46,813 nucleotides of DNA from Kiloniellaceae bacterium (GCA_021776215.1 JAJFGI010000361.1:1-46813); one strand, 5' to 3'; positions 4,444 to 44,900 are shown, counted from the first letter of the stretch. Numbers and translations: made by a program. Notes: generated from the sequence alone by a model not told the origin.

Positions 4444-4457
4444 GTACAAGCCATTCG

Positions 4458-26473: not shown

Positions 26474-26986
26474 ATGATGGAGGCCTTCGAGGCCTTCGAA
26501 GCGCAGGCTCGACTCGTCGAGGCGCTCGGCGATCTCGACGAGCGTGTTCGGTCGATGCTCTCCCGTCAGCGCGAGGTTGCATGGAGGGCGTCATGGCAAG
26601 CGTGCCGCTCGGTTGAGCAGCCGCGCCTCGGAGGTGAGGCTGTGCCGGGGCCGTCGGTCAGTCGGGTGGCCAACGCGATCGAGCCGAGGAGGGTGGGGGA
26701 CCTCCGGCAGGGCGAGGTCGGTTGGGTCAACCCGTTCATGGCGCTCATCGAGCACGCGGTGCGACCCCGCGGAGGTTCGCTGCGGGATGTCAGTGGGACG
26801 GGTCGGGTTTGGGTCGACCGCCGGGCGACCGTGCTCGACAGCGAGCAAGGCCAGCACAGCGTCGAGGTGGTACGCGAGCACGATCACTGTCTGGCACGCG
26901 GCCCGATCGATCGAACGCGACTGGCCGAGCGAGCCCCGGATGCAGACCCGAACTTCGTGCCGGTTGTTTGGCTCCCTGCTGTGTAA
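26474..26986 (+). CDS. Hypothetical protein, last gene of operon
   Basis: ATG after previous stop; ORF also open from 26381. Confidence 0.6.
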   Translation: MMEAFEAFEAQARLVEALGDLDERVRSMLSRQREVAWRASWQACRSVEQPRLGGEAVPGPSVSRVANAIEPRRVGDLRQGEVGWVNPFMALIEHAVRPRGGSLRDVSGTGRVWVDRRATVLDSEQGQHSVEVVREHDHCLARGPIDRTRLAERAPDADPNFVPVVWLPAV

Positions 26987-27056
26987 GTCGGTTGCGGCGA
27001 GAGACCGTTTCGCGGCTGGTGGCTTTGACCGTCTAGCCCCTACAATCCGTCTGCGG

Positions 27057-28151
27057 ATGACGAAGAAGGTCGCAAAACGGAAGCGTCAGGGCGGCGACAC
27101 GGCGTCTTTCGCCAAGAAGCCGTCGAAGCTGGACATGCCGAGCGACTACGGCGACGTCCTCGCGGACATCCGGCGCCGCATCTCGGACACCCGCACTCGC
27201 GCCGTGCTCGCCGCGAACGCCGGGCTCGTGACGCTGTACTGGGAGGTCGGCGCGCTCATCCGCGAGCGCTTGGACAGCGAAAAGTGGGGCACGCAGGTCA
27301 TCGACCGACTGTCCGGAGACCTCCGAACGGCGCACCCCGAAATGAAGGGGTTCTCCGCGCGGAATCTCCGCTACATGGCGACCTTTGCCGAAAAGTTCGC
27401 GGATCGCGCAATTGTGAAACAGGCTGTTTCAAAATTGCCTTGGGGGCACGTCATCCGCCTAATGCAGCGAATTCAGGATCCGGAGGTCCGCCTTTGGTAC
27501 GTCCACGCCGCCGCCGCGGAGGGGTGGACGCGGGCAACCCTGGAACTCCAAATCGATGCCGACGCGCATCGCCGGCGGGCCAAGGCGCTGACCAACTTCG
27601 ACACCGCGATGGAGCCCGCGGAGTCCCAGGTCGCCCAGGCGGTGTTCAAGGACCCCTACCTGTTCGACTTCCTCGGGACCGCTGACTACCGGCGCGAACG
27701 CGAGGTCGAACAGGCGCTCGTCGACCACATCCAGAAGTTCCTGCTCGAGCTCGGCTCGGGCTTCGCCTTCGTCGGCCGGCAAGTCGCTCTGGAGATCGGC
27801 GACCAGACCTTCATCGTCGACCTGCTGTTCTACCACCTGAAGCTTCGGTGCTTCGTGGTCATCGAGCTCAAGGCCGTGCCGTTCGAGCCGGAGTTCGTGG
27901 GCAAGGTCAACCTGTACCTGTCCGCCGTCGACGACTTGATGCGTCACGACGACGACAAGCCGACGATCGGTTTGCTGCTATGCCGCGAGAAGAACAAGCT
28001 TGTCGTGGAGTATGCGCTGCGGGATGTTCAAAAGCCGATCGGTGTCGCGGAGTGGCAGACGCGGATTGTCGAGAGCTTGCCGGAGGACCTGAAGGGGACT
28101 CTGCCAACGGTGGAGGAGCTCGAGGCCGAGCTGCAGGACGAAGACGACTAG
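27057..28151 (+). CDS. YhcG/DUF1016 family PD-(D/E)XK nuclease-domain protein
   Basis: LYWEVG, KGFSARNLRYM, LPWGH, KDPYLFDFL, FLLELGSGFAFVGRQ, DLLFYH, VIELK, PTIGLLLC. Confidence 0.93.
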   Translation: MTKKVAKRKRQGGDTASFAKKPSKLDMPSDYGDVLADIRRRISDTRTRAVLAANAGLVTLYWEVGALIRERLDSEKWGTQVIDRLSGDLRTAHPEMKGFSARNLRYMATFAEKFADRAIVKQAVSKLPWGHVIRLMQRIQDPEVRLWYVHAAAAEGWTRATLELQIDADAHRRRAKALTNFDTAMEPAESQVAQAVFKDPYLFDFLGTADYRREREVEQALVDHIQKFLLELGSGFAFVGRQVALEIGDQTFIVDLLFYHLKLRCFVVIELKAVPFEPEFVGKVNLYLSAVDDLMRHDDDKPTIGLLLCREKNKLVVEYALRDVQKPIGVAEWQTRIVESLPEDLKGTLPTVEELEAELQDEDD

Positions 28152-28443
28152 CCAAGCTTTCTTGAGCTGTTCTACTCCGAGTTTCGAATCGGCCGGCGGG
28201 CCGACGCGTCCCCAAACCAACAAGCGGACGCTGCGCGTCATGACAGCGAACATGGAGCGGGGGGCAACGAACGACGGAGGCTGATTCGTGACAGGGAACG
28301 ACGTCCGCTCCCCTCAAGTCGGCTACGGCGGCAATGAGCCTGACGGTCATGCTAGCTTCGCCCACGCCAAGGTGCTCGCGGACCGTCGGTTCTTAGGTGT
28401 CGACCGAGCGACCGATGCACCAGCCCAGCAGGAGCACCAAGAG

Positions 28444-29313
28444 ATGACCGAGATCAATTGGACAGAGGAACAGCGCGCTCGACTACAAGACGCGATTGAT
28501 GCCGAGATCGAGAACTCTCGTCTCGCCGACAAGATCATAAGGGCGGTTCCTGTACCCGCCAACGACCGAGCCGTGGCGAGGGACCGCTACATTTACCCCA
28601 ACCCTGGTGCAGCCCCTCCTGTCATCGAGGGCATCGATGAGACGTTTGTGGACCTTGGAGCCGACAACCAGGAGGCCTTCTCCCTCACGAAGTTGCAGAC
28701 CGAAGACCCGGACCTCTCACGGGCGCTTGTCCGGGTTCGGCGCGCGACGCAACAGCTCGCACGGAGCCACGACACGTCCGTTTTTCGGGTCGCTATTCGC
28801 GATGAACTAGACCGCGAAGCCCCTGGCCCCGGAGCGCCGTCAGTTCCGGGCTACCACAACATCGTGGCGATCTGCGAGGATGTCCGAGGGTCAGGCCGCT
28901 ACGGAGACGGCCTGGCGACCGCAGCCGCCGAGGCAGTAGCGGAACTCGATGGCGAAGGATACCGGTCTGGCTTCGTGATGGTCGCAGGTCAGGCGGTGTT
29001 CCGCCAACTTCACCAGCGTGTTCCCGGCGCGGCAGACCTCCCCGTAGTGGCCGTGCGTGCGCTGCTAGATGACGGCCCGATTCACCGTTCTGCTGTTCTT
29101 CCCCAGGACGAGGCGCTTGTGCTCTCGATTTCCGGTGAAGAAGTCGATCGGGCGGTCGCGGTCGGGCCCACACTTGAATTTCTCCGAGTCGGGGCGAATG
29201 AGAACCGAGAGTTCCGCGTATACGAGCGCTTCCTGACCCGTTTCAAGCAGACCTACGCGGCCGTGTTGCTTAGGTTGGCACCGGCACCGGCACCGGCACC
29301 GGCGGGTCCGTAG
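28444..29313 (+). CDS. Family 1 encapsulin-like (Linocin M18 / HK97-fold) shell protein
   Basis: N-terminal WTEEQRARLQDAI..E...SRLA; RRATQQLARSHDTSVF; AVAELDGEGYRSGF; FRVYERFLTRFKQTYAAVLL; 289 aa; CAGGAG RBS. Confidence 0.75.
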   Translation: MTEINWTEEQRARLQDAIDAEIENSRLADKIIRAVPVPANDRAVARDRYIYPNPGAAPPVIEGIDETFVDLGADNQEAFSLTKLQTEDPDLSRALVRVRRATQQLARSHDTSVFRVAIRDELDREAPGPGAPSVPGYHNIVAICEDVRGSGRYGDGLATAAAEAVAELDGEGYRSGFVMVAGQAVFRQLHQRVPGAADLPVVAVRALLDDGPIHRSAVLPQDEALVLSISGEEVDRAVAVGPTLEFLRVGANENREFRVYERFLTRFKQTYAAVLLRLAPAPAPAPAGP

Positions 29314-29353: not shown

Positions 29354-32300
29354 ATGTCGAGACACCAACTCGAAGTCGGTGAGGTTTGGTTCGGGACCAA
29401 CGATGCACCGGTGCCCTCGGGCCCCCGCGAGGTCAGCACTCCAAGCGTGACGGTTGGTGTTTCGCCGGTGTTGGAGGACCCGGTCGTTCACGTCCGGTAT
29501 CGGAGGCGCGGTGGCACGTGGAAACGACTACAACTTCGTCCGGTCCGCAGCGGGCCAGAGGGGCAGTTCCTCGCAGCGACGTTTCCGCCCCTGCCATCGG
29601 GCGCACGCATCGAGTACGCGGTTTTCTTTCGCAGCGGCGGAAGGCGCCCGACAGCCGAGCGCAGAGTCGGCGAGAGTCTCTCGTTCCAGGTCAGCGGCAG
29701 CCCACCACGACCCTCTTCACCAAACGCCACGCCGGCTGCACCGGGCCCTGGGCGGTCCGGCACACCTGCGGCCGCGGTCCCTGAGCTGGCGCGGAGCCCG
29801 GTAGGCGAGCGTTCCCAGCGAGACGCTGCGTTGGAACCCGACCGGGAGGCACGTCGCCTCTCGTCCAATGATGTGGCTGCGTCACGATTGCTCGAGGCTC
29901 TGGAGCGGCACGGAATCGGCCGGCTTGAGGAGCTACGCAAACTCTCGGCAACAGATCTCAGAGATTTGCTCGATTCGGCAGGACCTCTTGCAAGTGGGGC
30001 GTCGACTAACGCCGAGCTGGTCGGCAAGACTCCCGTACCGAAGAGAGGATCGCGGTCTGGTGCAGCTCCCGAGAGCGAGGCCGGCTCCCCTGAAGCTACT
30101 GCCCCCGCGGACTCGGCCCGTCCGCCCGCAGATCACGACGGGGCAATCTCGGGCCTTGTGCTCCGCCCGCGTGGTTTTTCGCAGCTCGAAACGATCGAGA
30201 TTCGAGCGTACGCCGACCCCGACCTGAGCCAGGAAATCGGCACGAGTCATTGTGATGTGACGGGTCGCTTCGTCGTCGCCGTGTCTCGGGCGGCCGAGGC
30301 GCGCCCCGCTTGGTTCCGATGGTCCACAGAGGAAGCGTTCGGGCGGACCCCCGTCTTCGAACCTCGACTGCCTGGCCAGCCGTTCTGGGTCTGCCCGTAT
30401 CGGTTGGCGGTCCATCCCGGGGCTGCGGGCCGGTTGACGCGGCGGTCGGGCCGAGTTCTCGCCTCAACTGGCGCACCGGTCGTGGGGGCCCAGGTGTGGT
30501 TGGTCGAACACGCATTGCGGGGATGCCAGTACCTGACGAGCACCGAAACCAGTGATGACGGGTCCTTTCGCCTCGCTTTTCCCACCGACGCGCTCCTTGA
30601 CGCTGCACAGCCCGATCTTCGCTTCCTGGCTTTCGGCGGACCGGCTCGACCACTGATCGCGAGCCGATCAGCGGACCTGGTGCTTCCGGTTGAGAGTGTC
30701 GACGTTCGGAGCCTGTATGAAGATATCGGAGATGCCGTGCGACGCCACTCGCACGAAGGCGATCCGCGTCTTGCCCCCGAACAGGCGGCGTACATCGAGC
30801 GTCGCACTGGAGTCTCGGCGCGCGCGATTCTGGCGTTCGAACGCGCGCAGGAGTTGGCGTTAGCCGCGGGTGCCGATCCCGCAGTTGCGTTTGCGCTGCT
30901 CAGGGCACCCGTAGCCCACGACTTCGAGGCAATGCTTCTGGATAGTGTGCATCTCGGCGTTGTCCCTTCGACGGTGTTGTCCAGACCGGCGCAGCAGTCG
31001 CCTGGAGTCGCGGAGTTGTCGGGCGACAGCGGGCGTCTGCTTGACGTTATGCGTGGCCCCGAACTCGGGGGAGTCTGGGCCGAGATCAAAACACCGGAGG
31101 AGCGCCTGGCGCTGCTTCGACGTTGGAACGACGCGGCGACGCCCGATGACTTTGAAGACCAACTCCGCACCGATGCGGAACTTCGATCCGCCGCACCGCG
31201 GCTTCGTCGCATGCTCGAGTTGTCCAACACGGTGGGAGAAGCCCCGGAGCTCGTCAAGAGTCTGGTCGCGTCTTTGCCGGAGAGCGAGGGTCTCGGCACT
31301 CTTGCAACTTGGTCGGTTGGGCGTTGGGAACACCACCTGACCGAGGCACGTATCACTCCTGTCGCAGCGTTCGGTGGCGGCGAGGACGGACTACGCGCCT
31401 ACGCAGGTCACCTGTCCAAGAGGTTCGCAGCCCGCTACCCCCTGAGCGCCGCTGGCGAGTTGGCCCTTCGGTCGGACCGTGACTTCGCGCGTCTGGATCA
31501 CGCGAAAGTCGTGGACACCCGTGCCGCCGCTACGTTCGGTGGGATCCGGTCGGCGTCTCGGAAGAAGCGTACGAAGAAGCTCCACGCCGCCGCGTCAATC
31601 CAGGCTGTGGCGGGTCAGGTCGAGGCTGCATCACGCTTGCTTGAGGACGGCGTCGGCACTGCGCGCGCAGCCGCCCGAATGGGCCGTCGAGAGTTCACGA
31701 GCCAGTTCGGAGAGGCGTTCGTTGGTGGAGAGGTGGACGCGGCCGTGGCTCACACTCGCGCGAGACGGACCGCGGCGCTCGGGAACTATGCGTTCGTCGC
31801 CCTCGCAGGCAACGCTACTGCTGCGCGCGGGCTTGCGTCGCCGGAGCTCAAGGGTAAGCAGCGGGAGCGCGCGTCCGAAGCACTCAAGATCAGGGACCCC
31901 GTTGAGCTCGACCGAACCTGGGAGGAGCTCTCTGGCCGATTCGGGCGGTCATTTTGCGAATGTGCCCACTGTCGAAGCATCTTCGGACCGGCTGCCTATT
32001 TGTTCGACATGCTGTTGTTCCTGCACCGGTTTACGACTGCGCCGGAGCCCCACTCGATGATTGGGAAGCGTCTGCTGCAGACACTAATGGAACGTCGAGT
32101 CGACGTGCTCCAGCTGCATCTGTCCTGCGAGAACACCAACGTTGAGGTTCCGCAGATCGACCTCGTAAACGAGCTCCTCTGGGACCTGGTCGACGCATCC
32201 GCCCCTGAACCCAGTCGGCCACTCCCCGTCGTGTGCCAAGACAACGAGGAACCGATTGGCCCGATCGAATGCGCCGCCGACGTTCCTCCCAGCTCGTCAT

Positions 32301-35300
32301 CTCCCAAGGGCGCCGAAGAAGCTGAGAGGCCGGACGGTGTCGTCACCGACAACCGCTTTCGTTGCGCGGGCCCCGAACGCGAAACGCAGGGGACCTCAGC
32401 GGAGCGACGCGCATCACCTCAGAACGAACCGCCGCCGTCAGTACTCAACAGGCTCAAGGGCGCCGGCTTCCCTTGGACGCTCCCGTATGACCACACGCGC
32501 GATAAGGCTTGGCAAGCGACCAACGCTCTCGCTGTTGATCGGGCGGAGCTTGCCCTTGAGCTTTGGCGGCTCGCCGAAGCAGGCGCGCAGGACCAAGGCT
32601 TAGCGGCGCTGGAGACCCTCGCAAGCCAGTTTCTGAATCTGAGCGACGGTCAACGGGCGCTGTTGGTGACGCCTCCGTACAGCTTGGCCGATGTATGGGG
32701 CCCGGCCGTTGCGGCGGCGGTAGTCGACGGATCGGGGCCAACGCTGGACTCTCTACGCGTCGCGGGAGAACTCAATTTTTCCGCTCTGGACGCAGCCCTG
32801 ACGTCCGTTTTTGTGAGCGGGGAGGGCGAGCGGACCTACGAGCTTCTTCCGGCGTTCTCCTGTGATGCCAGCGACGTTCGTCTCGTCGGAGCAAAGAAGG
32901 AGCTCTGCCGAATCCTCGACAGACTTCACCGCTTCGAGCGGCTGCGTCGTCACCTCGGCTGGCCCGTTCACGTTCTTGACGGTGCTCTGGATTGGCTAGG
33001 CGGCGAGCTGGGAGACGAGGTGCTTGTGGCGTTAGGCGCCCTGAAGTTCCTTGAGGCAAAGCTAGACGTGTCTCCTCAGCAGGTGCTGGCGCTCTTCCAC
33101 GACCCAAGCGCGACACGGCGAACGAGCCTCGTCGCCGGGAAGACTCACGAATCCAGCTTCAGCAAGTTGTTTGGCGACGCCGGGACGCAGCTGCCGTTGT
33201 CCGATGACCCCGAGGCGGCGATCTCTTTGATCTCGGGACTGTCTGGGGAAGAGCCGAGCGCCGTCCGGTTCGTCCTTGAGCAGGGATACGCCGACTCCGT
33301 CGACGAGGAATTGAGCGGGTCCGCGAACATCTTTGCGTTCGCTGACCCGCACGCGACGATCCGGCGAGCAGCCACAGCGACGTGCCGAGCGACACGGCTC
33401 GCGCGGGCCGTCCGTCTCCCTGCTGCCGACCTCGTCCACCTGATCAAGACGTTCGATGCCGATCCATTCCCGTGGCCGGGGAATGCCGTCCCACCTCAGA
33501 CGCGCATTCTCAATGCCGTCCGACTTCTGTCATTGGCGGATGAGTCCCGTTCGTGGCACCTAGATCCGGTCGATGTTCGCTATGTAGCCACGACCGATAG
33601 GTCCATTGAGCGTTCGCGAGGGCTCGATGCTGAGGTTGTGGGTCAAACGTGGTTGGCGTTGCTGGCCGCGGTTGCGGAGCGGCAGAGCAAACACGAGACG
33701 GAGTCGCTCAGTGGTCGGGCACTGCTTCGCCAGGCTCTCAACGAACTGCTGCGGCCTGCTTCTCCGGACGGTGCGACTGCGACGGCCCTCGAATCCACCG
33801 TTTCTCGGCTTATGGACTTGCTGTCGTGGCACGCCCTGTTCCCCGAGTTGCTCGACCATGCCGTCGCCCTCTTGCCGGCGAGTATCCCAGCCACCGAGTA
33901 CCCAGTGCCCGAGGAAGCGGCCGACGGCCTGTGGGATCCAATCGCTGGGCAGCTAGCGGGTTGGATCGAGGCAGGGTTCCCCGACGCGCGGGCTGATGTG
34001 CCCGCGGCCGACGACGATGAGACAACGGAATCCTGCGTCTGCCCGTCGGAAACTGGCGAAGCGACGGTCGCACCGCTCACAGATGGGGAGGAGGGGGCCG
34101 GCGTGCTTCAGGTCGACGTCGGCACGGCGGCCTACGCCACGGCGGAGGGAGACTTGTTCGCCGCGGCGCAACAGTATTTGGCGCTTGGGAGCGAGGCCGA
34201 CCAGACCGAACTCGTCGCATCTTTGGCGAATCTACTCTCTTCCCTTGGAATCGACCTGGAGCCCAGCGGGGTCGCCAGCCTGGCGGCACGCTACGTCCGA
34301 CGCGCCGTGGAATACGCAGCGAATTCGCATGCTGAGTCTCTCGAAGCCAGCGCACAGCTCTGGTCGGACGTCTTGTTGGTGGCGGCAACGCGCCGCGATG
34401 TTGAGGACTTGGTCGCTGCCGCATTGGCGTCGCTGTGCTCCGTCGACCAAGAGGTCGTTGAACTCCTGCTGAGGATCTTGTGCGAGCCCGACACGGAGTC
34501 TCCGCTGCTGCGCGCTTTCGTCGCTGAAGATGGAACGATCCCGAGAATCGCGCAGTCGCTTCCGACGGCCCACTATTCGCGACAGTCCGCGGCCGCCGAC
34601 GTGCTGCCGAATGAAGCGTGGGTTCGGGCCGAACCCAGCCTCCATCTCGACTGGACATCAACGCCTCCCCCTGACGGTCTGGGCGTCAACGAGTTCTCGG
34701 TGCAGCTCGAGGCGCGGTTCTCGGTCGACAGTTTGCTCGAATCTGGCCGCGCAGCCTCCCTCGTCCTGGGGACGACAGGCACCGCGACCCTGGGTCTCGT
34801 TGCGACGACCACGGACGAGACAGTCCTCATCGCCGACGGCGAGGGAGCGTTGGAGTTCATCGACGCTCCTGCTGGTCGCGTTGACACATTCATCGCCGGG
34901 CTCAGCGGACGGCAAGAACTGGTCACGCTCCGCGTTAGCTACGAGGCGCCTGCGGCCCCAGGCGCGGCGGTCCTTCGCGTGACTGCCCGTGCTGACGACG
35001 AAATACTGGAGACAGCCTGGCCCGGCAACCTACGGGACTCCATCCTGCTGCTCCACAAGGCCACGCGAGTCGTCGGCGCTGCCAAGCTACCCGCACAGAT
35101 TTGGCAGGCGCTCCCCACATCGTCGACCGAGATCGATCTCGATGCGCTCCCACTGAAGCCGACGGAACCCCGCTGGACTAACGCGTGGCTGCAGTTGTCA
35201 CGACTCCCGGAAATCTGGAGCCGACGCGCCTCGGACGACCTCTGGCCGGAACTGTTTGCGCTTGTCGGCGCAGAACCCCTGTCGTTTCCGGCGACGAGCC

Positions 35301-38300
35301 AGGCACTCCTCGGACTGTCCGATGGTGAAATCGAGCAGCTTCGGTCGCAATCGGAGCCCCAGTCTTCAGGCCCGCGGTTTCCTGTCGGTCGTCGACTCCC
35401 GCCGCGCCGGGCTTTGTTGCCCGCGCGCCCGCCCGCCCCACTTTCGCCAACGATGCCGGCGCTTGAGCCGGCGGCCGCGATGCCAACCGGGCTTACCGAC
35501 GCTCAGGTTGAGGGCCTGCGAGGCTTGGCAGTCGACGCGTCCGACCGACGGCGGTCTCGGCGTGACCCGATCCGCGTGCGGCAACTTCCGCAGGCTCTGC
35601 GGCTCATAGATCTGTCGCGGAGACTCGGTGTCTCGTTCACGGTGCTGCTCCGGTGGGACGAGCACACGAGTCGTGAGCGCTACGCTCACAGTGTCGGTGC
35701 ATTGCGGTCGCAGCTGCCTCAGCCCGGATGGTTTGAGGCTCTTGCCACCATCAACGACCCGGTTCGAGAACGCCTCCGCGACGCAATGGTCGCGTGGCTC
35801 ACCAGCCACTCCCGCATCGTGTCTCCGCCGGGTCAGCCGCCTTTGCAAACGGTGCCGCCATTCGAGTCAGCGGAGGTGCTGAGCGACTCGCTGTTCACCG
35901 ACGTTCAAGTTTCGTCTTGTCTGCAGACGTCTCGGGTTCAGTTCGCATATTCAGCAGTGCTGCGGTACGTCGATGCGATGCGCCTAGGCTTCGAGCCAGG
36001 ACCGCAGCCCGGCGAACGGGAGCGCTTCGAGCGAGAGTGGTCCTGGAGGCGGCAGTATCGTCTCTGGGAAGCCAATCGGCGGGTGTTTGTTCACCCGGAG
36101 AATTGGCTCGAACCGGACCTGCGGCCGGAAAAAACCGAGCTGTTCGGGCACTTCGAAGATGAACTGATGTCTCGCCCACTAACGTCTCGGGCCGGTGAGC
36201 GTGCTCTGGTCGGCTACGCAAAGGAGCTGGCTGGCATCGCGCGCCCCGAGGTCATCGCGATCGTCGACCAGCAGGAGCAGCCGGATCTTCATGTCCCCTA
36301 CGGGTTCCGGGACCCTGACCTCGCAGGAACGCACGTGTTCGCCCGGACGCGAACCCAGCCTCGGAAGATCTACTATCGGCGTCGTCATCCTACTCAAGAT
36401 GGACGTTGGACTCCTTGGGAGGAACTCCCGGCGGAGCTGCCCGGCACGCACTACCTTGCGGTCGTGGTGTTCGGACGAGTCCGGCTTATCGCGGCGACTG
36501 TTGAGGCTGTGAGCCCAAGCAAGCGCGGGAAGTGTGAACCCCCAGAGGCGAATGCGGGTCTCCCTGACTCAGGCGGGCCGAATCCGGAGACGGAAGTCTC
36601 CTTCACGTGGATGGATCGGCAGCACGGCCAGTGGACTCCACCGGCAAGCATGCAGCGATATAGCGTGACGGCGGAGCTTGAGGCCCAGGTCTCGCACGAG
36701 GAGATTTGGAACGCGAGCTTCCCATGGGGGGAGTTCGAAGCCCTTTCGTGGGATCTTGGCTTGCTCGACAAGTTAGACGTAAGAGTCAAGTTTGGAGCGA
36801 ATGGTCCGGCCAAGGGCAGCAAGCTGAACGTCAGTCTGAAGTCGGCTGGCAGCAGCAAGTTACTCAAGGCGTGGAAGGCACCGAGCAACTACGCGAACAA
36901 GACGCTCACGGTGAGCAACACCCTCGCTGAAAACGACGATGTCTCGAGCGCAGAAGACGTCCTGGGCATCCAGCTGGACTGGAGGCCCAGGACCGACCAC
37001 GTCGACTACTGGATAGCATATGGCATCGCTTTCCCCTTCATCGGGGAGCCGATAGCCACCGGGATCGCCGCGGCGATCATCGCGGACCAGGGGTTGGAGC
37101 GCGACGACGTCGAGATCACGGGTGTCTCGGTTGTGTTCAAGAATGATGCGCTTGGTCGAACCCTGCCGGCCATAGACGTCCCAATGGAAACCGACAGGAC
37201 ACCTGCGATGTCCCGGCGACCGAGCAAGAGTTCAGCGATCTTTGAGGCGAAGGACGGCTTCCCCGTTTGGCTGACGGCTGGTCCCAGATACGCAGGCATA
37301 TCGTTGGGGAGTGCTTGGCGGTACTTTGAGGCACAAGTACAGGTATCGCCTGACGCCATCCCGCCGCAGCCGTCGATGTTCGAGTCCTGCGCTACTCCAA
37401 AGCATCACTCGGTCGACCTTGGCCGTGCGCTCAGCCTAAGAGTCGAGCGTCTTGCTGACGACTCCTTCGACATTGTCGTCCGAGTAAACGACCGCACGTT
37501 CGAGCACGGCGAGGCAGCCACAAAGTTCGCGCTGACGAACGACGCCGTTGTGGCCAACCCAGAGACCTGTGCGTGGCGAGACAAGGGCTGGGTGGACGGT
37601 GCTCCGCTGTGTACGAAGCTGAAAACCCGCCCGAGAGACGCCCTGACGCTGCGTGTCTTTGCGGACGGAAGCTCGGCCCGTATCGCGTTTGGCTCGTCAG
37701 GACAAGTCGAGCATGAAGGCACCCGGCGGGATCGGCAGGACCTTGTGACCGAGAAGGCGTGCCTAGAAACGCCTTCGTGGATGTCCACTGCGTTCCCGAT
37801 GTACTGCTCAGGCACCCGAGCGGTATCCGCACCCACCTGCTACCGGCTCGTCGTACCGTCAGATGAGCCGGTGTCGAGTTTCCACGGCCCGAAGGTGGTC
37901 GACGAGGATAGCACCGAGGACCAGCTCGGCAGGACGTTCTTCGTTGAGCGTATCTGGGAGCCTGGACCGGAGAAAAAGAAGTCCGCGGGAATCGCAGAGC
38001 GCTGCTACAAGGTTCCGATCTTTGAGGGCCCGGAACCCGAGCTGGGGTGGGAGGAGCAGGTCCACGGCGCGCCCGTGAAGTGGCCCGAAGTCAACGGCCC
38101 GCTGACCCAGTCCCCGCCGGATTGGCGACTCGGGCCGGGTGGAAAGTTCGCCAAGATGCCTGGTCACGTGGTGCGCAGCTGGGACTCTGTTCCAGCCGGT
38201 TTTCCTCCCATCGTGGACTTCGAATCCGGTGGGTTCATGCAGCCAGTTGGAATTGACAAGGGATTGGCGCTCATGTCGGGCGGTACCATCGAGGACTGGC

Positions 38301-41300
38301 AGGTCGGCAAGAAATTCAAGGTCGAAGTTGTCTGTGTTCCGGCCGGGACGGCACTGGCTTTGAAAGCCACCCAGAAGATCGCGCTCGAGGAAGGCATCCG
38401 GTCGAGCAAGGGCCAGATGATGGTCGCTTCCAGCGGACAGTCGGAGAACCTCGTCGAGAAGTGGGCGTTCCGCACCTTCTGGCATCCGCAAGCCGTCGGC
38501 TTGTTGCGTACCGCTGAAGGGCTCGGGGTGCCGAGAATGTTGGCATACCGTAACCAGGCTCTCGATTCGTCGAGTGATCTGCAGGTCGAAGCTGCACGTC
38601 AGGATTTCTTCAGCTGGTATGACCCTTCCGGCGTCGTGTCGAACGATTGGCCGACCGCGAAGGTCGACTTCTCTGTCGATGGCGCGTACGCCGACTACAA
38701 CTGGGAACTCTTCTACCACTGCCCGTTGTTGATCGCGCAACGCTTGAGCGAAGCCGGGCGATTCGAAGAGGCGGAGCGGTGGTTCAGACTCCTATACGAC
38801 CCCACGCAAGGTCGGCTAGTGAACGACCCCGCGCTGGCCAACCAGACGTTCCCGCTGAGGCATGCCGAAGATCGACGCGTTGAGGACATGCTTCACCTCC
38901 TCGAAAGCGGGAGTGTCCGAGAAGAGTTCGAAAAGCAGGTCGAGCGGCTCAATCGATACCCGTACCAGCCGCATCTGATCGCGCGGCACCGTGTTTCCGC
39001 CTACCAAAAGGCGCTTTTTATGCGCTATCTCGATCATCTGATCGCATGGGGAGACATGTTGTTCCGACGCGCGTACGGGTCCGACAACCGCAGCGACCTA
39101 GAAACTGCCTCAGCTCGCTACGATCTCGTGGCCAAGCTCCTAGGGAAACGGCCCGACTCGATGCCGGATCGTACGGGGGGCACGGTCGGATGTTTCATTA
39201 GCCTCATCATGGGGTCGGGGGCTACGAGCATCGAGGACGTCCGGCTGTGGGATCCGGTCGCTCGCTTTTCCGAGCTCATCGATGGAACTCGGGTGACGAG
39301 TGGCCCGCTCGCCAACGACGGGGAGGGGGTGCCGGAACTGTATTTCTGCGTTCCGCACAACGACAAGCTCCTTGAGTACTGGGACACCTTGGCAGAGAGG
39401 CTCTCGAACCTCAGGAACTGCAGAGACATCGAGGGCGTCGAGCGGACCCTGTCTCTGTATGGCGCAAGGATCGACCCCGGACTGCTCGTCCGAGCGACCG
39501 CGGAGGGGCTCGACATCGACGTCTTGCTCGGATACCTGTCGGCTCCCCTGCCGCGCTTCCGCTTCACCGCGATGTTGCAGCGTGCCCGTGAAGCGGCCGA
39601 TCGCGCGCGCAGTTTCGGGGAATCGCTGCTGTCGGCGATTGAGAAGCGCGAGAGTGAAGGGCTTGCTCGGCTCCGAGCTGGCCAAGAGCTGTCGCTGCTC
39701 AAGGCGGTCAAGCTAGTTCGCAGCGAGCAGCTCGATGAAGCACGGGAGTCGCTCAAAGCCCTCCGGAAGTCGCTGGCAGCGGCCGAGGTGCGCCTGGACT
39801 TCTACACCTCGCGCGACCGCATCAGCTTCAAAGAACGGAGCGAGGGCGAGGCGCTGAGCGAGGCGGGCTCGGCCGAGCAGCAAGCAGCTTCTGCGGCGGC
39901 GACGGCGTCGGATTGGGCCTGGGTACCGAACCTTGAGATCACGGCGCGGGCGGGCGTTACGGCCACGCCACCGTACTACTATGCCGAGGCTGGCGTCGGT
40001 TCGAGGTACTCCGTCGGCGGCGACACCGGCGTCAAAGTCTACCAAAACAAGGCTGATGGACTTCGCAACGAAGCCGCGGCACAGAGGGTCAAGGCGGCTC
40101 TCGTTGGCCGGCAGGGAAGCTTCGACCGACGCTGGGAAGACTGGGAACTCCAGGCCGACCTGGCACGCAAAGACATTCAGCAGATCGGGCGGCAGATTAC
40201 CGCGGCAGAGATCCGAATCGCGATTGCCGAGATCGAGCGCGACAACCAACAGCTGCAGATCGACAACGCACAGGCAGTGGACGCCTTCCTGCGGGACAAA
40301 TTCACCAACGCGCAGCTATATCGGTGGATCGAGTCGCGCTTGTCGCGTGTCTACTACCAGCAATACCGACTCGCCTTTGACCTCGCACACAAGGCGCAGC
40401 GCGCCCTTTACTACGAGCTGGGATTGGCCGACGCACCCCCGCTGCCTGATGCATGGGACGCCCAGAACCGCGGGATGGAGGCCGCCGCGATGCTCCAGCA
40501 CGAACTTCAGAAACTGCAGCAGACGCACATCGACGCGTGGCGACGCGAGCACGAGAAGACAAAGATCTTCTCGTTGTATCGTCGACAGCCGTTGGCCTTC
40601 ATCGACCTGCGGGAGACCGGGTCATGTGTGTTCGAGATCGTCGAAATGGACCTGGACGAGGACGAGCCAGGGGACTACTTCCGGCGCATCAAGGCGGTCT
40701 TTGTCGATATCCCCTGCGTTCGGGGGCCAGACGTATCTGTGAACGCACGGCTGACCTTGCTGAGAAGCACGGTGCGGACGCAGTCTCACCGGGCAACCGA
40801 TCCCTACTATCCTCGCGAGGAGGGCTCAGACGGGATCGAGGACAAGCGTTTCCGTGACGACCCCGGTGGAGTCGACCACATCGTGACCAGCAGTGGCGTG
40901 AACGATGCTGGCCTCCACGAGGCAAACCTCGCCGATGAGACCCGGCTCCCGTTTGAAGGGGCCGGGGTCATCAGTACGTGGTGCCTGGAGCTGCCATTGG
41001 AAACAAATCTCTTCGACCGAGCCTCGCTGAGCGACGTCAAGTTGAGGATTCTCTACACGGGCAGGGCAGGGGCCGAGCCGGCAAGGGCCGCGGCTCTCGA
41101 TGCAAGACGGGCTACGATGGCGGATCGGCCCAAGCCTGTGATGTTCGACCTGGGGACCAAGGCGCCGGACGAGTGGCATCGTTTCGTGCACGGCGGCGTC
41201 GACGGGCACGAGCTGAACTTGAGTGTGACGCGGGATGACCTGCCGCGAGGCGTAGGCGACCCACGGATCGTTGCGACGGATGTTTGCTTCGAAATGCAGG

Positions 41301-41482
41301 ACGGCGAGACGCTTCAGGTCGTCGGCGGTGACGCAGTCGGGACGATTCGCTCCGAGCGCGGGATGACATGCCTCAAGCTTCGTTCGCCGTTGAGGCTGGG
41401 AGAAGAGTTGGTTCTCCGCCTTGCGGCTAACTCTGGCGTTCCGGTGCGAGCCGACCTGCTCGTCTGGCTGCGCAGCGAGTAA
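29354..41482 (+). CDS. Tc toxin complex subunit A-like protein (4042 aa)
   Basis: VRP1/SpvA-like CECAHCRSIFGPAAYL; ABC-toxin N region TSRVQFA..YRLWEANRRVFVHPENWLEP; YNWELFYH; FCVPHNDKLLEYWD; RRWEDWELQ; KFTNAQLYRW; TcB-binding RRIK..IPCVRGP..LPFEGAGVISTWCLELP. Confidence 0.92.
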   Translation: MSRHQLEVGEVWFGTNDAPVPSGPREVSTPSVTVGVSPVLEDPVVHVRYRRRGGTWKRLQLRPVRSGPEGQFLAATFPPLPSGARIEYAVFFRSGGRRPTAERRVGESLSFQVSGSPPRPSSPNATPAAPGPGRSGTPAAAVPELARSPVGERSQRDAALEPDREARRLSSNDVAASRLLEALERHGIGRLEELRKLSATDLRDLLDSAGPLASGASTNAELVGKTPVPKRGSRSGAAPESEAGSPEATAPADSARPPADHDGAISGLVLRPRGFSQLETIEIRAYADPDLSQEIGTSHCDVTGRFVVAVSRAAEARPAWFRWSTEEAFGRTPVFEPRLPGQPFWVCPYRLAVHPGAAGRLTRRSGRVLASTGAPVVGAQVWLVEHALRGCQYLTSTETSDDGSFRLAFPTDALLDAAQPDLRFLAFGGPARPLIASRSADLVLPVESVDVRSLYEDIGDAVRRHSHEGDPRLAPEQAAYIERRTGVSARAILAFERAQELALAAGADPAVAFALLRAPVAHDFEAMLLDSVHLGVVPSTVLSRPAQQSPGVAELSGDSGRLLDVMRGPELGGVWAEIKTPEERLALLRRWNDAATPDDFEDQLRTDAELRSAAPRLRRMLELSNTVGEAPELVKSLVASLPESEGLGTLATWSVGRWEHHLTEARITPVAAFGGGEDGLRAYAGHLSKRFAARYPLSAAGELALRSDRDFARLDHAKVVDTRAAATFGGIRSASRKKRTKKLHAAASIQAVAGQVEAASRLLEDGVGTARAAARMGRREFTSQFGEAFVGGEVDAAVAHTRARRTAALGNYAFVALAGNATAARGLASPELKGKQRERASEALKIRDPVELDRTWEELSGRFGRSFCECAHCRSIFGPAAYLFDMLLFLHRFTTAPEPHSMIGKRLLQTLMERRVDVLQLHLSCENTNVEVPQIDLVNELLWDLVDASAPEPSRPLPVVCQDNEEPIGPIECAADVPPSSSSPKGAEEAERPDGVVTDNRFRCAGPERETQGTSAERRASPQNEPPPSVLNRLKGAGFPWTLPYDHTRDKAWQATNALAVDRAELALELWRLAEAGAQDQGLAALETLASQFLNLSDGQRALLVTPPYSLADVWGPAVAAAVVDGSGPTLDSLRVAGELNFSALDAALTSVFVSGEGERTYELLPAFSCDASDVRLVGAKKELCRILDRLHRFERLRRHLGWPVHVLDGALDWLGGELGDEVLVALGALKFLEAKLDVSPQQVLALFHDPSATRRTSLVAGKTHESSFSKLFGDAGTQLPLSDDPEAAISLISGLSGEEPSAVRFVLEQGYADSVDEELSGSANIFAFADPHATIRRAATATCRATRLARAVRLPAADLVHLIKTFDADPFPWPGNAVPPQTRILNAVRLLSLADESRSWHLDPVDVRYVATTDRSIERSRGLDAEVVGQTWLALLAAVAERQSKHETESLSGRALLRQALNELLRPASPDGATATALESTVSRLMDLLSWHALFPELLDHAVALLPASIPATEYPVPEEAADGLWDPIAGQLAGWIEAGFPDARADVPAADDDETTESCVCPSETGEATVAPLTDGEEGAGVLQVDVGTAAYATAEGDLFAAAQQYLALGSEADQTELVASLANLLSSLGIDLEPSGVASLAARYVRRAVEYAANSHAESLEASAQLWSDVLLVAATRRDVEDLVAAALASLCSVDQEVVELLLRILCEPDTESPLLRAFVAEDGTIPRIAQSLPTAHYSRQSAAADVLPNEAWVRAEPSLHLDWTSTPPPDGLGVNEFSVQLEARFSVDSLLESGRAASLVLGTTGTATLGLVATTTDETVLIADGEGALEFIDAPAGRVDTFIAGLSGRQELVTLRVSYEAPAAPGAAVLRVTARADDEILETAWPGNLRDSILLLHKATRVVGAAKLPAQIWQALPTSSTEIDLDALPLKPTEPRWTNAWLQLSRLPEIWSRRASDDLWPELFALVGAEPLSFPATSQALLGLSDGEIEQLRSQSEPQSSGPRFPVGRRLPPRRALLPARPPAPLSPTMPALEPAAAMPTGLTDAQVEGLRGLAVDASDRRRSRRDPIRVRQLPQALRLIDLSRRLGVSFTVLLRWDEHTSRERYAHSVGALRSQLPQPGWFEALATINDPVRERLRDAMVAWLTSHSRIVSPPGQPPLQTVPPFESAEVLSDSLFTDVQVSSCLQTSRVQFAYSAVLRYVDAMRLGFEPGPQPGERERFEREWSWRRQYRLWEANRRVFVHPENWLEPDLRPEKTELFGHFEDELMSRPLTSRAGERALVGYAKELAGIARPEVIAIVDQQEQPDLHVPYGFRDPDLAGTHVFARTRTQPRKIYYRRRHPTQDGRWTPWEELPAELPGTHYLAVVVFGRVRLIAATVEAVSPSKRGKCEPPEANAGLPDSGGPNPETEVSFTWMDRQHGQWTPPASMQRYSVTAELEAQVSHEEIWNASFPWGEFEALSWDLGLLDKLDVRVKFGANGPAKGSKLNVSLKSAGSSKLLKAWKAPSNYANKTLTVSNTLAENDDVSSAEDVLGIQLDWRPRTDHVDYWIAYGIAFPFIGEPIATGIAAAIIADQGLERDDVEITGVSVVFKNDALGRTLPAIDVPMETDRTPAMSRRPSKSSAIFEAKDGFPVWLTAGPRYAGISLGSAWRYFEAQVQVSPDAIPPQPSMFESCATPKHHSVDLGRALSLRVERLADDSFDIVVRVNDRTFEHGEAATKFALTNDAVVANPETCAWRDKGWVDGAPLCTKLKTRPRDALTLRVFADGSSARIAFGSSGQVEHEGTRRDRQDLVTEKACLETPSWMSTAFPMYCSGTRAVSAPTCYRLVVPSDEPVSSFHGPKVVDEDSTEDQLGRTFFVERIWEPGPEKKKSAGIAERCYKVPIFEGPEPELGWEEQVHGAPVKWPEVNGPLTQSPPDWRLGPGGKFAKMPGHVVRSWDSVPAGFPPIVDFESGGFMQPVGIDKGLALMSGGTIEDWQVGKKFKVEVVCVPAGTALALKATQKIALEEGIRSSKGQMMVASSGQSENLVEKWAFRTFWHPQAVGLLRTAEGLGVPRMLAYRNQALDSSSDLQVEAARQDFFSWYDPSGVVSNDWPTAKVDFSVDGAYADYNWELFYHCPLLIAQRLSEAGRFEEAERWFRLLYDPTQGRLVNDPALANQTFPLRHAEDRRVEDMLHLLESGSVREEFEKQVERLNRYPYQPHLIARHRVSAYQKALFMRYLDHLIAWGDMLFRRAYGSDNRSDLETASARYDLVAKLLGKRPDSMPDRTGGTVGCFISLIMGSGATSIEDVRLWDPVARFSELIDGTRVTSGPLANDGEGVPELYFCVPHNDKLLEYWDTLAERLSNLRNCRDIEGVERTLSLYGARIDPGLLVRATAEGLDIDVLLGYLSAPLPRFRFTAMLQRAREAADRARSFGESLLSAIEKRESEGLARLRAGQELSLLKAVKLVRSEQLDEARESLKALRKSLAAAEVRLDFYTSRDRISFKERSEGEALSEAGSAEQQAASAAATASDWAWVPNLEITARAGVTATPPYYYAEAGVGSRYSVGGDTGVKVYQNKADGLRNEAAAQRVKAALVGRQGSFDRRWEDWELQADLARKDIQQIGRQITAAEIRIAIAEIERDNQQLQIDNAQAVDAFLRDKFTNAQLYRWIESRLSRVYYQQYRLAFDLAHKAQRALYYELGLADAPPLPDAWDAQNRGMEAAAMLQHELQKLQQTHIDAWRREHEKTKIFSLYRRQPLAFIDLRETGSCVFEIVEMDLDEDEPGDYFRRIKAVFVDIPCVRGPDVSVNARLTLLRSTVRTQSHRATDPYYPREEGSDGIEDKRFRDDPGGVDHIVTSSGVNDAGLHEANLADETRLPFEGAGVISTWCLELPLETNLFDRASLSDVKLRILYTGRAGAEPARAAALDARRATMADRPKPVMFDLGTKAPDEWHRFVHGGVDGHELNLSVTRDDLPRGVGDPRIVATDVCFEMQDGETLQVVGGDAVGTIRSERGMTCLKLRSPLRLGEELVLRLAANSGVPVRADLLVWLRSE

Positions 41483-41530
41483 GCTGGTGCGGTGCTCTAG
41501 CGCTTTCCTCCCTTCCTCCGCGCGGCTTCG

Positions 41531-41941
41531 CTACTTTGGCAGGCTAGCCTGGTAGCGCTCAAGGAACGCGGCGAGGTCTTCCGTCAATCCTGCGAAGTCG
41601 ATCTCTCTGGCCAGCGCGTTCCCCGATGACTGAAGCACTGCCGGAGCGTCGGCGACTGCAGTGGCTATTCTCTCCTCCAAGTTGCTTCTGTCGTCCAGCG
41701 TGCATCCGATATCGATAGAGATGTACTTGCCGCCGACGTCGACATCTACGTTACCGGCCCCAGACAGCCCGTACTTGCTGATGTCGCCATCAACCCGCAG
41801 CACGAATGCAAGCTTCCGCACCGGGAACGCTCGGATACCTCCGCCGCCGCTCGCGGCCCGAAGCGCCTTGAAGTGTGGGAGCACGGCCTGCGCGGCGTCC
41901 CTGCCACCGAACTGAGCGGAGACGTCAAGTACGGCCCTCAT
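41531..41941 (-). CDS. Immunity protein, Imm12-like
   Basis: Starts 1 bp after toxin stop; FVLRVDGDIS..G...KYISIDIG pattern. Confidence 0.7.
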   Translation of the reverse strand: MRAVLDVSAQFGGRDAAQAVLPHFKALRAASGGGGIRAFPVRKLAFVLRVDGDISKYGLSGAGNVDVDVGGKYISIDIGCTLDDRSNLEERIATAVADAPAVLQSSGNALAREIDFAGLTEDLAAFLERYQASLPK

Positions 41942-41942
41942 C

Positions 41943-44900
41943 TCAGGGGTTGCTCCGCTTCCCCGCCCAGGGTTCGCGATTCAATGGTCCTGGGCTCACC
42001 TCAACGAGGTTCCGTTCAACCTTCAGCATGTCTCGTCTCGGTCCGCGTTGTGTCTCGATCAGATACCCACCGTCGAGTTCTCCCTGAGAGTACCGCCGGC
42101 TGGGATCCTGCGAAATCCCGTGCTTCAAGAAGTTGTCGTCGGCGTCGTATCGTTCGTAGAGTACAGCCTCCTGGTCGCCGGCTGTGTTTCCGTGTGTAGA
42201 GCTACTTGAACGCTCTTTCGGTCCGCCGTCGGGTGCGAAGGTCCCGTCGCGATTGCGCAGTCGGCCGTTCGTATCTCGGAACTGTCCTGCAGGATCTCCG
42301 CCGGAACCCTTCTTCCGGTCCAACCAGCCCTGCAGGCGCTTCACCAGCCCCGGAGCCATCTTCTTTGCAAACACGACCGCCGCGGCCACCAGCGCGCCCG
42401 CCATCAGGAGCGATGCAGCCTCCATCGATAGGCCCTCGCCCGCCTGCAAACGCTCGTAGGCGGCCATGACCTGCTCGCCGGCCGCGCCAAGCCCGTCCAG
42501 CATGTTGGGCAGATTCTGGACGAGCTCCTTCAGGTCGTACGCGATGCTGCCAGCAACGAAAGCCTGGCCCACAAGCGGGAAGAGCGCGATGACGCCACGG
42601 ATTCCCTGCCCAATAATGGCTTCGCGCAACGCCTCATACGCAGCGTCGCCAAGGATCTCGACGGCACCGGCGAGCGCCGTCGCCCAGTCTGTGATCGATC
42701 CAGGATCAAAGAGCTCAGCTTCTGGAGGCCCGCGTGCGCCGCCGCCACTGCTCGAAACCGGGTCCGGATGCTCCGAGGTCAAGGACATGCCCATCTCGTT
42801 CTCGAGGGCAGTGGAAGGAGGCGTGGTGGTCTGGGTTCCCGTCGCGTCGACGTATCGGACGGGGTTGTTCCGCGCGTAGCGGTAGAGGTTCAAGCCGTCG
42901 ACTAGCCCGGCGGGGTCGGCAGAGCACCAACGGCCCAACCACGGGGCGTAATACCTTGCTTCGCAGTAGTCGAGACTCGTCTCCTCGTCCCGCTCTTTCC
43001 CGTTGTACCTGTACCGTTTGGCCGGGGCATCGACGCCGGACCGTGCTGCCTGATACGCAGTACCTCCGAAGGGATAGTACTCCTCGTACGAGATGATCCT
43101 GCCGTCTCGGTCGGTCTCGATCACACTCGAGCCGAGGTGATTGCTTGCCTGAAAGCGTTCGCGCGCAGCCAGGACCGGCACGTCACTTCCGTCTTCTCTG
43201 ATTTTCGTTTCAAGAAGGCAGGCCCGCCCGGTCCCGTCGCTGATGTCGAGCGCGGACCGTTCGAAATCCAGCGTGCCGTTGGCGTGTCTTCGAAAAGTCT
43301 CGTAGCCGCCGAAGTAGATGCGCTCCTCGGTGTGGGTCGACTTCACCACCAGCTTCCGTACCCGGCGCGCGTCGGCGCCGTAGCTGTAGTGCGCGGTTCC
43401 TCCGCCACCGAGATCAGCTGTGACCAGGCGGTCCGCATGGTCCCACCCGATCGACGGGAGATGCTGCATCGCAGTCATGTTCCCGTTCGGGTCGTAGGTG
43501 TACGGCGCCGAGTACGGGCGAGAGGCCGTTGACGCGCAATGCTGCCCTTCGTTGGGGACCTCGTCGCCCGGAAGACTCGTGCAGAGCAGTCGGTTGCTTA
43601 GCGCGCTGCCTGCATCATCGCACTCGTACGCGTAGTAGCGCGTCCAACCCAGAGTGCCCGCTTGATGTGCGACCTTCTGCAGGTTGCCTGAATCGTCGTA
43701 CTCGTAGCGCTCAACGTAGCGCTGCAGTGCCTGCCCATCGTTGGGATGGCGCAGGGGGCGGGTTCCAAACCTTTGGGAAGTCGGCTGCTGTGCCGAGTGC
43801 TCCCGGCCCTCGGCGTGAATCAGCTGGTACAGCGCGTCGTACTCATAGCGCGCCGTGGCCTCGACAACCGCACCGTCGAAGAATGTTGTCTGCTGGGCTG
43901 CGTCGCGAATCTCGACAACGTTCCCCACCGCGTCATGGGCATACGTGAGGTCCTGCAGGCTATCGCCAGGCCCGCGGACGGTGCGGAGGCGGGTCAGCCG
44001 AAACGTTTCTCTGTCGAAGGTGCGGTGCGTCTGCGTGCCGTTTCCATAGGCGACTCGGGTGCGTTGCCCGCGTTCGTTGTAGTCAATCCCATCGACGATG
44101 GGGATCGGGTCGCCAACGCCACGAACCTGGACCACGAGGCTCTCCAGCAGACGCGACTCATTGTAGACGGGCGTCGATACGCTGCCGTCGGGGGCGATGC
44201 TGAGCGCGACCCGATCGAGTGCGTCGTATCGGCTGCGAATGGAGAACACTTCGGACTCGAGGCTTGGCTCCGATTCAGACCTCGCGGCAGCGGGGCTGAG
44301 CTCGGGTGCCAGGGCAGCCCAGTTCGGGATGTTCGTCGCGTTGCGAGTGAGTCGACGCGTGCTCTGGAGGAGATTGCCCTTGAAGTCATACGCTACGTTC
44401 TCCGCAGCCCCGGCTCCGTCGTATTCAAGATAGACGCGGCCGCGGAGATTGAGGCTCGCATCAGGGGCATCTTGCGCATCACCGTAGAGGATCCGGTGCA
44501 CCAGCTCTGGCGTCTGCCCGGTGGCTGCAACCCAGACGTGGGTCAGCCTCTGAAGTTGATCGAACTCGCGTCGGAATCTCTGGCCGAGGCCGTCCCAGGA
44601 GCGAACTGGCTTGTCCGCGACATCAAGAAGACTCAAGCGTTCGCCGCTATCGGAGGAGCGGCTCCACAGGACCCGCCCCGCAGCATCGAACTCTTGACGG
44701 AGCACCGTTACACCCCGGCCGTCGACAATGGTCGTTTGGTTGCCCTCCACGTCGAGCTCCACTCGCACCTCCGTATATCGATCCTGGGACATACCGAGCT
44801 GCTCGGTGCGATTGTGCGTGACTGTGAGGAACGCGCGACCGAGGGAGTCCAGCGCAGAGACCGTCGGCGTACCTGAGTGCTTTGCAGTCAGCCGTGCTGC

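Follow-up and report, generated by a model that had tools for sequence, protein, structure and literature searches.

A Tc-type toxin locus with a predicted URI-fold nuclease cargo and a probable immunity gene, possibly aimed at bacteria

Gene content of the Tc locus

The DNA analysed here (the window, 46,813 nt) is one entire contig, JAJFGI010000361.1, of the assembly of a Kiloniellaceae bacterium. At its right end, a gene for a TcA-like subunit lies tail-to-tail with a TcB-TcC fusion and a small gene, together forming a Tc-type toxin locus with the following features:

29354..41482, plus strand: TcA-like subunit, 4042 aa, unbroken frame, assigned by Pfam and PDB-chain matches
41531..41941, minus strand: likely cognate immunity protein, 136 aa, soluble, alpha+beta, in no Pfam or NCBIfam family
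41943..46813, minus strand: TcB-TcC fusion, 1622 aa visible, 5' part past the contig end, matching PF12255 and PF05593
42837..42917, minus strand: RHS core end, carrying the predicted aspartyl autoprotease motif DPAG...PVRYVDATG with its two aspartates intact
41946..42836, minus strand: cargo, 297 aa, 31.4 kDa, with an acidic N-terminal half (isoelectric point, pI, 4.2) and a basic tip (pI 9.3)
42540..42596, minus strand: hydrophobic segment 1, cargo residues 81-99, Ala/Gly-rich, Kyte-Doolittle peak over a 19-residue span (KD19) of 1.84
42369..42425, minus strand: hydrophobic segment 2, cargo residues 138-156, Ala/Gly-rich, KD19 2.03
41952..42203, minus strand: predicted URI/GIY-YIG-fold nuclease domain, Tox-URI2-like, assigned by conservation and structural likeness

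The fusion is read from 46811 to 41943 in a frame still open at the contig edge, and tblastn found no further piece of it in the assembly. It matches PF12255 (E 5.6e-34), scores above the cut-off of TIGR03696 and aligns with the TcdB2-TccC3 chains at E 1.5e-103, in agreement with a first-pass annotation, made by a model from the sequence alone, that had described a Tc-type toxin with an RHS core ending in NNPVRYVDATG. As expected of Tc toxins, the TcB middle region continues into an RHS core that contains PxxxxDxxG and two aspartates. The N-terminal SpvB and beta-propeller region of TcB, which docks on TcA in Tc complexes, would fall in the unseen 5' part. NNPVRYVDATG closes the core at 42837, where a cargo of the predicted length of ~297 aa begins. 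The aspartates of the window motif are spaced by 23 residues, exactly as are D651 and D674 of TccC3, which we take to be the aspartates of this same motif. Passages of Song 2021 (PMC7861908) name D651 and D674 and give a Tc cargo size limit of ~40 kDa, below which the window cargo falls.

TcA matches PF18276 (E 7e-86), PF20220 (E 1.1e-27) and PF18413 (E 2.7e-17). The first of these, the TcB-binding C-terminal domain, reaches 288 bits against a cut-off of 25 and places the protein among Tc subunits. Comparison with solved TcA chains in the PDB returned YenA2 (E 2e-76) and also XptA and TcdA1, and both the ABC_toxin_N and the neuraminidase-like domains are retained. No second TcA-like sequence was found across the assembly; TcA and TcB-TcC, the sole copies of each found there, lie 460 nt apart, and 48 nt separate the stop codons of TcA and the small gene.

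Two hydrophobic helices had been read in the cargo and are present, both moderately hydrophobic. Comparable peaks occur at least once in 13 of 39 related cargos and twice in one of them, and in 5 of 26 carriers of the same tip; cargo residues 1-175 gave no BLAST match in the 39 related cargos or in the fetched proteins. The helices are therefore real but not general, and the role in inner-membrane passage once suggested for them is unsupported. Given how rare such peaks are among the 39 cargos, we rejected these helices as a general inner-membrane translocation module.

The nuclease tip and its immunity gene

The tip, numbered here within the last 121 aa of TcB-TcC, belongs to a family of 558 representatives at E<=0.001. 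In an alignment of 160 sequences, residues Y51, K62, G64, R72, Y73, E98, E103 and N110 are each conserved at 97-100%, with Y51, K62-x-G64 and E98 at 99-100%, and thus reproduce the Tox-URI2 signature Y, KxG, [EQ] described in passages of Zhang 2012 (PMC3482391). Structural comparison of the predicted model (pLDDT 85.7) by VIA placed I-TevI at the top (Z 5.7, root-mean-square deviation (rmsd) 2.6 Å, 66 aligned residues), followed by UvrC (5.3), T4 EndoII (5.1) and PD-T4-3 (5.1). The five top-ranked VIA matches all belong to GIY-YIG or GIY-YIG-like domains (Z 4.5-5.7); as values below 8 may reflect a common arrangement, the weight lies on the agreement of the top matches. UvrC also ranked first in Foldseek (E 0.56). 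In the ESM Atlas, 10 of 30 matches fell in Tox-URI2 clusters (0.93), with GIY-YIG at 0.88, and Tox-URI2 accounted for 42% of members in the best cluster. Profile comparison with hhalign gave 50.6% against a mixed GIY-YIG set, a figure that has no control, and 1% against UvrC alone, with a score of 14.5 compared with 15.8 for the best of 30 column-shuffled controls. PDB sequence searches with the tip and small-gene alignments returned nothing significant.

In the profile search with the Pfam models Tox-URI2 (PF15653) and Imm12 (PF15560), which the first-pass annotation had proposed as a check, neither model matched any protein of the window or of its own genome. Among tip homologs, 2 of 50 matched PF15653 weakly (best E 0.0089), and the family was absent from the 25 families shown for 76 additional homologs. 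No match to Tox-URI2 (0 of 251 genomes) or Imm12 (0 of 301) was found in the phylum of genome G365, where the controls were equally silent and the counts are thus uninformative. We therefore regard the tip as a predicted URI-fold nuclease near Tox-URI2 and not as a formal Pfam member: of the earlier Tox-URI2-like label, the Y/KxG/E pattern and the GIY-YIG-like matches stand, whereas PF15653 is not reached, and the label is fair in its '-like' form.

The same tip occurs on RHS, HINT, PT-TG, MafB, DUF637 and eCIS-core carriers, mostly interbacterial delivery systems, and related cores bear differing tips, the pattern of tip exchange expected of polymorphic toxins. A separate observation concerns P0035, a 1123-aa protein that has DEAD and ResIII helicase domains and this tip (71% identity) at its end.

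Directly behind the toxin, where an immunity gene had been proposed, the small gene starts 1 nt past the TcB-TcC stop codon (TGAGATG); a coupled small open reading frame (ORF) of this kind is met by chance at 209 of 2880 random positions (~7%). The predicted structure of its product (pLDDT 94) has four strands and five helices, the 136-aa protein has no hydrophobic peak, and all 23 homologs from one search are annotated merely as 'hypothetical'. A profile-detected homolog is the ORF directly 3' of the tip in 16 of 20 other genome loci, a count that includes five loci of close kin (L008-L012), and the 15 homologs measured start -11 to +16 nt from the toxin stop. The four remaining loci have a truncated tip (L005), another small gene (L015, L019) or a 24-residue match at a contig end (L020). 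Carriers in these tip loci are RHS, HINT and unplaced proteins, with MafB, PT-TG, DUF637 and eCIS-core among the wider homologs. Compared with L001, a locus from Myxococcota with a HINT carrier, tip and small gene form one aligned block of 599 nt at 73% identity; tip and immunity gene move as one DNA cassette between unrelated carriers.

Structure prediction of the tip with the 136-aa protein scored 0.90, compared with 0.23 for the best of three controls; among 157 solved complexes 116 attain this mark, as do 2 of 215 mismatched pairs. Contacts agreed fully (100%) between runs, partner pLDDT was at least 92, and the interface takes in R72/Y73 and the conserved SAQFGGRD motif, so that the small protein is predicted to bind the tip over its conserved arginine. 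Toxin and small gene thus occur in that order, tightly coupled and conserved together, as in polymorphic toxin systems, and the homolog 3' of the tip in 16 of 20 loci, together with the predicted binding, makes a cognate immunity gene very likely. We hold it highly probable that the two form a true toxin-immunity pair, as the first-pass annotation had supposed. In P0038, tip and immunity homolog are read as a single 465-aa protein, through stop loss or sequencing error, which again links the two.

The alpha+beta form of the immunity protein beside a Tox-URI2-type toxin agrees with the earlier Imm12-like label, and passages of Zhang 2012 (PMC3482391) give Imm9, Imm12, Imm39 and Imm44 as partners of Tox-URI2. 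PF15560 is not reached, however, either by the window protein or by any of its 24 close homologs; among 14 locus homologs, one matches Imm12 (E 0.017) and another Imm44 (E 0.034). The Imm12 label is thus weak and denotes a remote likeness. The best structural matches, a YbeY-like protein (Z 6.1, rmsd 5.0 Å) and Wss1 (Z 5.7, rmsd 3.9 Å), are middling and were not accepted as homologs.

Related loci, host and neighbouring genes

With the RHS core as query (E<=1e-40), Tc-type cores were found in 22 of 301 genomes of the phylum Myxococcota. Their cargos are mostly 250-500 aa long with differing tips. Among 43 tips scanned (41 from the Myxococcota set and two from relatives of the window's assembly), six scored above a toxin-family cut-off: GH-E, Tox-SHH, WHH/colicin DNase, Tox-MPTase5, Tox-REase-7 and Ntox28. 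A Pfam match of any kind was obtained for 9 of 37 ORFs 3' of the cores: SUKH twice (once above cut-off), DUF2019, ankyrin, HEAT, a weak colicin-immunity and a weak Imm1 match, and others including a transposase, with one or two further weak matches being uninformative. A coupled small gene, defined by an ATG start, 70-220 aa and a start -14 to +45 nt from the toxin stop, follows 14 of 21 scoreable cores, compared with the chance level of 7%, a raw comparison in which kin are not independent. The rule overlooks genuine couplings (L050, L067, L068) and lets through some that are doubtful (L048, L146).

TcA adjoins the core in several of these loci, and in G351:C143 a TcA, a TcB-TcC and a SUKH-like gene stand in a row. 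Orphan TcC cassettes lie 3' of the Tc-type fusions of L080, L083, L084, L087, L088 and L222; some share the first ~200 cargo residues with the full gene at 96-99%, and in L080, L083 and L084 every orphan cassette has its own tip and small gene. An N-terminal peptidoglycan-binding domain is present on 11 of 46 related TcA proteins scanned (L040, L041, L126, L136, L143, L146, L163, L166, L171, L193 and L215) and could anchor TcA to the producer's wall or bind that of the target. The window locus is one example of a wider set with the layout of interbacterial polymorphic toxins. P0180 is another TcB-TcC fusion, complete in this case, with a tip of the window's family (SpvB E 2.3e-89); it aligns with the window fusion at 38% over 1418 positions. 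We also observed Tc cargo tips matching VanY carboxypeptidase and a DddA-like deaminase at L136:6947-7456 and L166:11720-12229; the VanY match, on a TcA-linked tip, scores above cut-off, and neither tip has a coupled small gene.

The host of the locus is uncertain, since the contig departs in tetranucleotide composition from the rest of its assembly: the four 10-kb pieces into which it was cut take ranks 2, 3, 5 and 10 among 176. Neither same-genus genome contains a TcB-TcC match, and among 60 relatives a Tc-type core occurs only in G016 and G057, neither of the same genus or family. In a FastTree phylogeny of 91 core sequences (midpoint root), the cores of these two fall elsewhere than the window core, which belongs to an 18-tip clade (SH support 0.94) with eight loci from Myxococcota and nine metagenome contigs. 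The contig is either mis-binned or a mobile element, and a myxobacterial origin is likely. The region recurs with no differing letters in contigs of three biofilm metagenome runs of one study, although none of the contigs listed spans it whole and one run is possibly the source sample; no RNA data set was listed as containing it.

Directly 5' of TcA lies an encapsulin-like gene whose membership of the system is uncertain; its NF041155 match falls below cut-off. A BLAST scan of the 53 loci that held a TcA 5' end found one further homolog in this position (L040:10229-11185, genome G016). Positions 1-26400 of the window hold ~26 kb of genes almost without family matches (Pfam matched 0 of 50 ORFs, many of them shadow frames), many of which encode Pro-rich products with a hydrophobic anchor and a basic patch at the N terminus; this part is possibly an undescribed phage or integrated element. 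Rfam gave no match, and promoter and terminator scans of 41300-43200 remained close to chance level. Features outside the toxin locus are:

460-1089: clamp- or RusA-like gene (PHROGs)
4299-5108: ParA (PHROGs)
21900-22580: endolysin/metallopeptidase (PHROGs)
26544-28151: YhcG/DUF1016 PD-(D/E)xK nuclease gene, with GC content at third codon positions (GC3) of 0.86, far above its neighbours
28288..29313, plus strand: encapsulin-like gene (PF04454 E 1.6e-6)

Target of the toxin and comparison with known systems

By analogy with Tc and RHS biology, the cargo would be cut off by autoproteolysis inside the TcB-TcC cocoon, the cocoon would dock on a pentamer of the neighbouring TcA, and TcA would thread the cargo across the target membrane; we infer this assembly and translocation from gene adjacency. 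The tip is predicted to cut DNA in the target cell, and the 136-aa protein to cover the active-site arginine of the tip in the producer and its siblings. A bacterial target, which we judge fairly probable if any route of entry is allowed, is favoured by the immunity genes and cassette arrays, by where the tip comes from, by the peptidoglycan-binding TcA proteins (11 of 46) and by the VanY-type tip; entry of bacteria through TcA itself is a serious possibility that falls short of probable. Our preferred explanation, held tentatively, is accordingly a TcA/TcB-TcC locus with a URI-fold nuclease cargo and its immunity protein, likely aimed at bacteria. Somewhat more doubtful is the wider proposal that in Myxococcota-type bacteria the Tc syringe became a polymorphic weapon against other bacteria, with TcA-delivered, swappable nucleases, immunity genes and orphan arrays.

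Several observations weigh against aiming at bacteria through TcA, the weakest step of the preferred explanation. We know of no Tc route across the bacterial envelope, with its outer membrane and wall. Immunity is equally to be expected wherever a producer makes a nuclease in its own cytoplasm, and genes within an operon normally lie close together. At the window locus, TcA stands on the strand opposite to TcB-TcC and the small gene, the TcA protein has no peptidoglycan-binding match, orphan cassettes are absent from the 48 nt between the immunity and TcA stop codons, and the fold match of the tip is middling (VIA Z 5.7, Foldseek E 0.56). Among the related loci, Pfam matches nothing in 28 of the 37 ORFs 3' of the cores in the phylum set, and most peptidoglycan-binding TcA proteins sit in loci without a coupled small gene. 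Such a gene is also missing from the two nearest neighbours of the window core (L126 and L159) and accompanies only 17 of 61 metagenome cores; the 24 ORFs scanned from the latter gave one immunity-type match (SUFU). Of 10 genomes selected because they have Tc-type cores, 5 yielded no PF18276 match. Finally, characterised Tc toxins act on eukaryotic cells (passages of Song 2021, PMC7861908).

This last point underlies a rather unlikely alternative, in which an ordinary Tc toxin against protist grazers, fungi or small animals acquired a nuclease cassette from the common RHS pool and kept the immunity gene because a cytoplasmic nuclease would harm the producer before its enclosure. A DNase finds its substrate in every cell, the window TcA retains its ABC_toxin_N and neuraminidase-like domains, and tip and immunity gene travel as one cassette on any carrier, as passages of Zhang 2012 (PMC3482391) also describe. 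The orphan arrays of the relatives, each cassette with its own small gene, nevertheless fit kin competition better than self-protection alone, and the same source interprets immunity-paired URI toxins as intra-bacterial weapons, those of amoeba symbionts included. Distinctly unlikely, in our view, is that TcB-TcC acts on bacteria as a stand-alone RHS or teneurin-like cocoon, with TcA optional or reserved for other targets. The 5 of 10 genomes in which no TcA was found suggest that such cocoons may work without it, the window genes are convergent, and the literature sections consulted describe both SpvB/RHS 'TcdB/TcaC' carriers with immunity-paired tips that need no TcA (Zhang 2012, PMC3482391) and teneurin-like cocoons with immunity genes, common in Myxococcaceae (PMC13018210). 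Two of the TcA-negative genomes (G274 and G204) have megabase contigs; several others, however, are fragmented, TcA adjoins the core in many related loci, and the sole TcA and TcB-TcC found in the window's assembly are close neighbours, with the TcA intact down to its TcB-binding domain. The possibility that the cassette arrived recently on a mobile element or is already decaying, with no present role, would suit the outlier composition of a contig rich in unplaced genes, the lower GC3 of the tip (0.64 compared with 0.76 in the core) and a 5' part of TcB-TcC that is out of view. It is very unlikely given unbroken frames over 4042 and 1622 codons and the presence of all conserved tip residues and both autoprotease aspartates.

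The locus conflicts with the standing survey of Tc loci: passages of Song 2021 (PMC7861908) report no immunity proteins in Tc loci, B-C fusions excluded, and take this lack as support for eukaryote-only targets, and its Table S1 has no entries for GIY, URI, nuclease, Ntox, DNase or HNH. The first-pass annotation was right to see a departure from this view, and the Tc locus with its immunity gene, together with its relatives, contradicts the reported lack of immunity proteins at least for B-C fusions. Novelty is tempered by partial bioinformatic precedent. In passages of Zhang 2012 (PMC3482391), 'TcdB/TcaC' carriers form a class linked to several nuclease tips with paired immunity genes, Tox-URI1 among them, and a passage of a 2026 preprint (10.64898/2026.09.22.753552) mentions a few antibacterial-DNase homologs with 'a Tc toxin delivery system'. 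In the literature covered, which leaves out most subscription papers, we found no study that demonstrates entry of a Tc toxin into bacteria. Should TcA deliver these cargos into bacterial cells, the Tc mechanism would gain another range of targets, and predatory or social bacteria would possess an overlooked weapon; the Myxococcota-type loci would then be the first Tc class to inject bacteria, by an undescribed envelope-crossing route, and their orphan arrays would serve kin discrimination or predation. If not, Tc cocoons still draw on the interbacterial toxin pool. The loci also provide a URI nuclease and immunity family, as yet without a name, that is open to immediate testing in E. coli.

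Several known systems have features in common with the window locus. With the Tc toxins of Photorhabdus (TcdA1/TcdB2-TccC3) and Yersinia entomophaga (YenTc), of a class known to kill insect cells, it shares a TcA with TcB-binding and neuraminidase-like domains, a TcB middle region, an RHS core with PxxxxDxxG and two aspartates, and a cargo below 40 kDa; it differs in its natural B-C fusion, its convergent 4042-aa TcA, its URI-like tip and its coupled immunity gene. The polymorphic toxins described in passages of Zhang 2012 (PMC3482391) have the same Y, KxG, E motif, toxin-then-immunity order and RHS/HINT carriers. There, however, Tox-URI2 is given for the type II and type VI secretion systems only, and the 'TcdB/TcaC' class is defined by SpvB and a beta-propeller, without TcA, whereas the window proteins stay below the Tox-URI2 and Imm12 Pfam models. 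Like the GIY-YIG nucleases I-TevI, UvrC (N-terminal domain) and T4 EndoII, the tip is predicted to adopt a fold of this kind (Z 5.1-5.7, rmsd 2.3-3.1 Å over 63-66 residues) and carries Tyr, Gly, Arg, Glu and Asn in the corresponding order; unlike them, it has Lys for the second Tyr, no DNA-binding modules and a C-terminal PGPxNxEPWAG motif, at 11-17% identity. Bacterial teneurin-like proteins, in passages of PMC13018210, likewise combine a cocoon, a variable C-terminal toxin and a matching immunity gene and are enriched in Myxococcaceae, but have another shell family, and these passages name no TcA partner. Finally, type VI Rhs effectors such as RhsA-RhsI, as described in passages of PMC8765631, share the cocoon, autoproteolysis, C-terminal toxin and downstream immunity gene, whereas the window has a TcB-type region and a TcA neighbour in place of PAAR, a transmembrane domain (TMD) or VgrG.

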